NCBI RefSeq assembly: GCF_003334765.1
Contig: NZ_QOWT01000134.1
Strand: one strand, 5' to 3'
Origin: Escherichia coli
GTDB taxonomy: Bacteria; Pseudomonadota; Gammaproteobacteria; Enterobacterales; Enterobacteriaceae
DNA length: 338 nucleotides
Below, one piece after another: positions 180-338 of the stretch. Numbering within the stretch: the first letter of the stretch is position 1; the number at the start of each line of letters is the position of its first letter. The position numbers and the translations under genes were made by a program. The notes under the pieces are model-generated. The model searched no databases. It was not told where the DNA came from and was given only the letters and a program-made list of their open reading frames with translations.

Positions 180-187
180 ATGTGAAA

Positions 188-192
188 TCCTT
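188..192 (-). promoter_or_regulatory. Shine-Dalgarno / ribosome-binding site (AAGGA) for the CDS starting at 179
   Basis: Minus-strand AAGGA (plus-strand tcctt at 188-192) lies 8 nt upstream of the ATG, a canonical spacing. Confidence 0.6.
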
Positions 193-273
193 GTAGTGTG
201 AATAAATGCGAGGAAGTAAAGGTCGGGTGGCTGATAACATCACGTTCATCACTGACCGTGAGACCCGGTAATA

Positions 274-338
274 TCAGGGATGAATGATATTCGGCTGAAA
301 TTCCGGACAGCCGTACGCGTAACCGTTCCGGTCACAGA
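274..338 (-). CDS. Possible 3' end of an upstream minus-strand gene (hypothetical protein; last 20 codons ...CDRNGYAYGCPEFQPNIIHP, stop TGA at 276-274)
   Basis: A minus-strand frame is open from the window edge to the TGA at 276-274 and uses mostly common codons (CCG, GCG, GGC, TAC, AAC). A second minus frame is also open, ending at TGA 251-249 (...SVTGTVTRTAVRNFSRISFIPDITGSHGQ), but it contains the rarer ATA, CGA and GGA codons. With under 30 codons visible the choice is not secure, and neither frame may be coding. Confidence 0.3.
   Translation of the reverse strand, partial: CDRNGYAYGCPEFQPNIIHP

Follow-up and report, generated by a model that had tools for sequence, protein, structure and literature searches.

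Short palindromes and a direct repeat within a decayed small cysteine-rich reading frame next to an antirestriction gene of Escherichia coli 042

Closest described systems and setting of the locus

The cryptic prophages CP4-6, CP4-44 and CP4-57 of E. coli K-12 carry a set of genes in which a DUF932 gene lies upstream of genes for an antirestriction protein, RadC, DUF987, the CbeA antitoxin and the CbtA toxin. Based on the K-12 genes compared here (yafZ/yfjQ for DUF932, yafX/yfjX, ykfG/yfjY for RadC, ykfH for DUF987 and yafW-ykfI or cbeA-cbtA), the locus described in this study shows the same gene set in the same order. The window, i.e. the whole stretch of DNA that was analysed (338 nucleotides), is 100% identical to positions 4835115-4835452 of the E. 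coli 042 chromosome (NC_017626.1), and 4,418 of the 5,426 complete E. coli genomes contain related sequence, the median being two copies; of the spacer, about 4,260 copies were counted in E. coli. According to the RefSeq annotation, the locus is a CP4-type island beside cadC with all genes on the minus strand, in the order Ag43, membrane protein, IrmA, DUF905, DUF932, a 301-bp unannotated gap, antirestriction protein, RadC, DUF987, CbeA, CbtA, DUF5983, DUF957 and DUF4942. Window positions 180-338 form the first part of this gap, and RefSeq lists the stretch as intergenic. The spacer in front of the antirestriction gene contains an AAGGA ribosome-binding site 8 nt before the ATG (Table 1), and orthologous genes in the antirestriction position match PF03230 (Antirestrict).

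The second part of the comparison concerns an unnamed family of small proteins, annotated as “hypothetical protein” (WP_001164966.1, WP_001684385.1). The window copy resembles its members in sequence, strand, position between DUF932 and PF03230 genes and start/stop overlap, but differs by a 38-bp deletion and the substitutions C36Y and W58R, and it is left unannotated by RefSeq in strain 042. At the same place in other E. coli strains, a minus-strand “hypothetical protein” is annotated, with 81 aa in EC9682 and 57 aa in 1613. In CP4-6 of K-12 (L005, 263-268 kb), in contrast to the window, no trace of the small open reading frame (ORF) was found, and ykfK, ykfL, yafY, ykfB and ykfF lie between yafZ and yafX. 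A named K-12 gene for the small ORF was sought, but CP4-6 does not contain the ORF.

The ArdB/KlcA-type gene (PF03230) is the neighbour of the small ORF within one operon-like array and shares its name with the small protein in some databases, whereas the small protein differs from it in length, cysteine pattern and predicted fold. Several members of the small family carry the UniProt/NCBI name “Antirestriction protein” (e.g. Q1RDD9 of E. coli UTI89, as well as P0004 and P0017), although they show no PF03230 match; this name probably stems from the annotation of the adjacent gene.

Table 1. Features of the 338-nt window, with observed/expected ratios (O/E) of the short words in a 100-kb sample of the same chromosome
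Feature	Position	Strand	Boundary or codon context	Basis	O/E, base composition	O/E, 4th-order Markov
ArdB/KlcA-type antirestriction gene, 5' part (WP_000855083.1)	1-179	minus	ATG = reverse complement of 177-179	RefSeq annotation and ORF listing
Spacer of 94 nt, small ORF stop to antirestriction start	180-273	minus		Sequence, alignment, repeat scan
Decayed small cysteine-rich ORF, 3' end	274-338	minus	Stop TGA = reverse complement of 274-276	tblastn, frame translation, orthologues
TCCGGA palindrome	302-307		Codons C71-P72-E73 (TGT CCG GAA) of the minus-strand ORF, as T/CCG/GA		0.68	0.50
CGTACG (312-317) and ACGCGT (315-320) palindromes, overlapping	312-320		Codons Y67-A68-Y69-G70 (TAC GCG TAC GGC)		0.72 (CGTACG), 1.07 (ACGCGT)	0.81 (CGTACG), 0.84 (ACGCGT)
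First TTCCGG (CCGGAA on the minus strand)	301-306		Codon-aligned on P72-E73		1.75	0.93
Second TTCCGG	326-331		D63 (third base)-R64-N65 (first and second bases)		1.75	0.93

Conservation of the small gene and its decay in E. coli

On the minus strand, window positions 274-338 encode ...V61 C62 D63 R64 N65 G66 Y67 A68 Y69 G70 C71 P72 E73 F74 Q75 P76 N77 I78 I79 H80 P81, and the body of the ORF runs past the window to about position 481 (L001 6274-6481), where its ATG and the stop codon of DUF932 overlap. An intact copy of 81 aa is present in another E. coli locus (L003 1591-1836), its ATG likewise overlapping the DUF932 stop as TGATG. In a tblastn comparison, residues 19-81 of the intact 81-aa E. 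coli protein matched the window copy at 95% identity (E = 2e-38). A search of a 5.8-billion-protein collection returned 184 homologues at E <= 0.001; full-length homologues of 79-88 aa with 53-65% identity occur in Citrobacter, Salmonella, Yersinia, Mixta, Klebsiella, Enterobacter and others.

The position of the gene is conserved as well: it sits between DUF932 and the ArdB/KlcA-type gene in CP4-type integrative islands of Enterobacterales. In all seven orthologous loci of other genera, the final base of the DUF932 stop codon is also the first base of the small ORF (TGATG/TAATG). A PF03230 gene comes next in six of these loci, and L012 has one extra gene in between; RadC, DUF987, CbeA and CbtA follow later in most of the loci. 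The window copy shows the same arrangement, with its ATG overlapping the DUF932 stop and the PF03230 gene next on the same strand. This overlap of start and stop codons suggests that the two genes would be translationally coupled.

Among the seven orthologous loci, pairwise Nei-Gojobori dN/dS values ranged between 0.11 and 0.32, with dS near saturation, and variation was concentrated at the third positions of the minus-strand frame. Of the other frames on both strands, none was consistently open across the seven orthologues. Judged from these sequence comparisons, the small ORF, with a conserved length of 81-87 aa, is a real protein-coding gene under purifying selection.

The copy in the window, by contrast with the intact copies, has decayed. 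Alignment with the latter revealed a 38-bp frameshifting deletion after codon 6, located between two AGGCG microhomologies. As a consequence of this frameshift, the coupled ATG of the 042 copy now yields MQPVPEGAAGMSFHF and then a stop after 15 codons, and the remaining body of the ORF (...LPGCRSISDDDLCAWYTRLLYRPGEISLCRLSTGNGIRPSVCDRNGYAYGCPEFQPNIIHP, followed by the stop codon) has no start codon of its own. In addition, the 042 copy carries C36Y and W58R, both at nearly invariant positions. It has neither an intact frame of about 80-87 codons nor the full set of four cysteines (C33, C36, C49, C71) together with W58, and the small ORF in E. coli 042 is a pseudogene. The preliminary description of this DNA, made from the window alone, had regarded the region as probably coding and the short words near its end as possibly due to chance. 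Extending the sequence bore this out in essence, as the region is coding in the orthologues; in this strain, the frame lies on the minus strand, is broken and is missing from the RefSeq annotation.

As a separate observation, the 38-bp deletion (L001 6434-6483, corresponding to window positions ~434-483, beyond its end) brings the ORF remainder into the frame of DUF932 with a single TGA between them; readthrough of this stop would therefore give a fusion of DUF932 and the small protein.

Decay is frequent in this species. Ten E. coli copies were sampled so as to cover the identity range; nine were broken and one was intact, and the broken copies represent five independent lesions (the 38-bp deletion, a TGA at W58, a 76-bp deletion, a +TA insertion and a 2-bp deletion). 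In line with this, the protein search recovered large clusters of frameshifted products beside clusters of the intact 81-aa protein with 717 and 234 members. Further rearrangements were noted around the gene: in E. coli CE10 (L019 1-400) an IS3-family element has inserted directly behind the small ORF and replaces the antirestriction gene, in P0103 an IS-type insertion inside the small ORF fuses it to a transposase fragment, and in P0027 a deletion joins the first 53 codons of the ORF to the antirestriction protein's C-terminal half.

Origin of the palindromes and the direct repeat

Near the end of the window, the preliminary description had pointed out the perfect palindromes TCCGGA and ACGCGT and two copies of TTCCGG, and had raised the option of restriction or regulator sites. 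All of these positions proved exact when checked by script on the sequence (Table 1). A third 6-bp palindrome, CGTACG, which overlaps ACGCGT, had been overlooked. Positions 301-338 read ...ttccggacagccgtacgcgtaaccgttccggtcacaga, and according to a repeat finder the two TTCCGG copies are part of a 9-nt direct repeat with a single mismatch (TTCCGGACA, 301-309; TTCCGGTCA, 326-334).

In order to compare these words with their background, two 50-kb stretches of the same chromosome (100 kb in total) were used, providing 994 windows of 338 bp. The whole window contains four 6-bp palindromes, compared to 5.1 +/- 2.3 in shuffled sequences. At least two 6-bp palindromes within 31 bp were observed in 56% of the 994 same-genome windows, at least three in 14%, and at least two together with a non-overlapping repeated hexamer in 15%. 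Across all 64 six-bp palindromes, O/E values in this 100-kb sample ranged from 0 (CCTAGG, GGGCCC) to 2.25, and the three palindromes of the window are mid-range. The 23 repeated hexamers of the window stood out against mononucleotide shuffles (13.3); this excess was rejected as a signal, as it vanishes against real genome windows (mean 19.6; at least 23 in 29%). Over- or under-representation of the hexamers, which the preliminary description had considered, was not marked in either direction, and on the 100 kb sampled they occur at background level. The hexamer cluster is no more than chance.

The minus-strand frame accounts for each of the words. Window positions 333-301 read GAC CGG AAC GGT TAC GCG TAC GGC TGT CCG GAA on this strand (D63 R64 N65 G66 Y67 A68 Y69 G70 C71 P72 E73), and this codon string of the small cysteine-rich ORF would produce the hexamers by chance. 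The two CCGGAA copies lie in different codon phases (C/CGG/AA and CCG/GAA), and therefore do not reflect a peptide repeat. Comparison with the other genera separates the protein from the DNA words. Family members share the conserved motif CD-x-DGY-x-x-x-CP; C71 and P72 are nearly invariant, R64 and N65 variable (A/E/D/N in orthologues). The codons differ between orthologues, for example TAT GCC CAA TCC TGT CCG GAG and TAT GCA CAG TCC TGC CCA CAG. At the positions equivalent to 312-320, all seven differ from the window, with TAT/TAC followed by GCC/GCA/GCG/ACG/GAG and then CAG/CAA/CGG. Neither ACGCGT nor CGTACG nor either copy of CCGGAA was found in any of the seven orthologues, and TCCGGA was present in one (L006). 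Since the amino acids are kept while the DNA words are lost, the hexamers appear incidental, and we consider it very probable that the palindromes and the direct repeat are by-products of minus-strand codons near the 3' end of the small ORF.

Among the alternatives, the one that survives best, although it is quite improbable, is that TTCCGG-N19-TTCCGG, or the inverted arrangement CCGGA...TCCGG, serves as an operator for the downstream antirestriction/RadC/CbeA-CbtA operon and has been kept as DNA despite the decay of the ORF. The stretch precedes the antirestriction start codon by 95-155 bp, and it is almost invariant in the ten sampled E. coli copies, nine of which have a broken ORF. In nine aligned E. 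coli copies from few lineages (L001-L004, L015-L018, L020), the mean pairwise difference was 0-0.03 at window positions ~270-465 (L001 6270-6465), whereas the flanks were more variable, with 0.035-0.08 at the DUF932 3' end and up to 0.19 at the antirestriction 5' end. Such low diversity despite mostly broken ORFs could hint at a constraint at the DNA level. Recent spread of the island copies, or gene conversion among them, explains it equally well, and in view of the few lineages and the likely exchange between island copies we do not read it as evidence of a DNA-level function. Apart from TCCGGA in L006, the putative operator elements are absent from the seven orthologous loci, where the distance between the small ORF and the antirestriction gene ranges from 16 to 128 nt in six and reaches 642 nt in L012 with its intervening gene. 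In addition, a crude consensus scan for one promoter type detected no sigma-70-like promoter within 400 bp on either side (L001 5900-6700), and patterns of such size belong to the 15% class of same-genome windows given above.

A functional RNA or DNA hairpin, formed by CCGGA (303-307) with TCCGG (327-331) or by minus-strand helices, is less probable still. A GC-rich stem of 5 bp can be drawn, and a 59-nt minus-strand fold reached z = -1.64. Folding of both strands, however, gave z-scores of +0.61, -0.72 and -1.64, with 144, 40 and 10 of 200 shuffles, respectively, folding at least as well. Searches of the 2 kb around the site returned no Rfam match at E <= 1, a consensus scan revealed no terminator-like sites, and the pairing bases are not conserved in the orthologues. 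Outside this stretch, we noted an 11-nt inverted repeat with arms at 245-255 and 274-284 (TTCATCACTGA and TCAGGGATGAA, 91% complementary, 18 nt between), which spans the small ORF's stop codon and lies upstream of the antirestriction gene.

Equally far-fetched is the idea that the plus-strand ORF starting at ATG 280 (MNDIRLKFRTAVRVTVPV..., 337 aa), which is antisense to the small ORF and DUF932 in strain 042, represents a real gene. Its frame is open in 042, and PGAP annotated a plus-strand “hypothetical protein” of 46 aa (WP_000997937.1; L004 1598-1738) at the place equivalent to window position ~277 onward. Nevertheless, the ORF is the shadow of two minus-strand genes: the antisense frames of the seven orthologues contain between zero and five stops each and none is consistently open, and substitutions track the minus-strand codon phase. 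The 46-aa call over the decayed ORF is probably spurious. RefSeq annotation hence leaves a recognisable pseudogene without a feature in 042, and other strains sometimes receive a spurious plus-strand ORF in its place.

The weakest alternative, that the palindromes, which we take to be sites of the BspEI/Kpn2I type (TCCGGA), of MluI (ACGCGT) and of BsiWI (CGTACG), are restriction-enzyme targets or restriction-avoidance sites tied to the neighbouring antirestriction gene, has as its sole support that three 6-bp palindromes happen to fall into a span of 19 bp beside that gene and can practically be dismissed, as their O/E values in the 100-kb sample (0.50-1.07) are unremarkable, the sites are not conserved in the orthologues, and ArdB/KlcA proteins counteract type I systems, which recognise bipartite sequences rather than 6-bp palindromes.

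The suggestion of restriction or regulator sites in the preliminary description is consequently not supported: the hexamers occur at background frequencies in the 100 kb sampled, they are lost in other genera where the amino acids are kept, and neither promoter- or terminator-like sites (in the consensus scan) nor an Rfam match nor an unusual fold was found. The reading of the short words as incidental products of the coding sequence would stand even if the encoded domain binds metal and partners DUF932 and ArdB, a question considered below.

A four-cysteine domain in mobile elements

The intact small protein defines a domain with a core of about 50 residues (SISDDDLCxxCxxxxYxPGxxSxC..WP..D.DGY...C). 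Using a profile search against 1.84 billion representatives, we identified 313 clusters at 50% identity that match at E <= 0.001. Across 117 diverse sequences, four cysteines, three aspartates and a tyrosine, a glycine and a serine are invariant. Some proteins consist of the domain alone (55-90 aa), others (110-294 aa) carry it at their N- or C-terminus, and one case in tandem was seen; distant family members are found in tight arrays of small unannotated genes.

Database comparisons returned little that could be related to this domain. The small protein had no Pfam match at E <= 10, PF03230 included, and no family match in NCBIfam, PHROGs or PADLOC. Among larger proteins carrying the domain, a Pfam search of 30 yielded only single co-occurrences of DUF6876 and DUF3846, and an NCBIfam search of ten yielded nothing. 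PHROGs matches of the larger proteins comprised phrog_10759 and phrog_8491, both of unknown function, outside the domain, and a marginal match to phrog_26445 overlapping it (E = 0.004). Sequence searches of the PDB with two profiles gave no credible hit. Literature searches on the gene context and the motif ISDDDLC retrieved nothing relevant, and as far as we could find the four-cysteine domain has apparently not been described.

An AlphaFold model of the domain based on the alignment of 117 sequences reached a pLDDT of 87, and a search for its structural neighbours revealed none outside the family and no solved fold alike. An earlier-type model from a shallow alignment of 63 enterobacterial sequences had a pLDDT of 57 and was discarded. 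The family resembles small Cys4 zinc-binding modules, such as zinc ribbons and treble clefs, in its four invariant cysteines (C-x2-C ... C ... C) and, according to the predicted model, in a domain of about 50 residues composed mostly of short strands.

The cysteine pattern suggests metal binding, and the gene neighbourhood points to a role alongside DUF932 and ArdB in the establishment of the element. The intact protein, with its four invariant cysteines, would then be a small metal-binding module that acts with DUF932 and the antirestriction genes upon arrival of the element in a new host. A tentative proposal, which we regard as possible but rather doubtful, is that the domain binds metal as a partner of DUF932 and ArdB and helps mobile elements to establish themselves or to counter host defence on entry.

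The hexamer cluster itself represents chance words in a former coding sequence and has no wider importance. The intact gene, in contrast, defines a conserved, widespread and uncharacterised four-cysteine domain beside antirestriction genes in mobile elements, and the family is a reasonable candidate for surveys of anti-defence or establishment genes.
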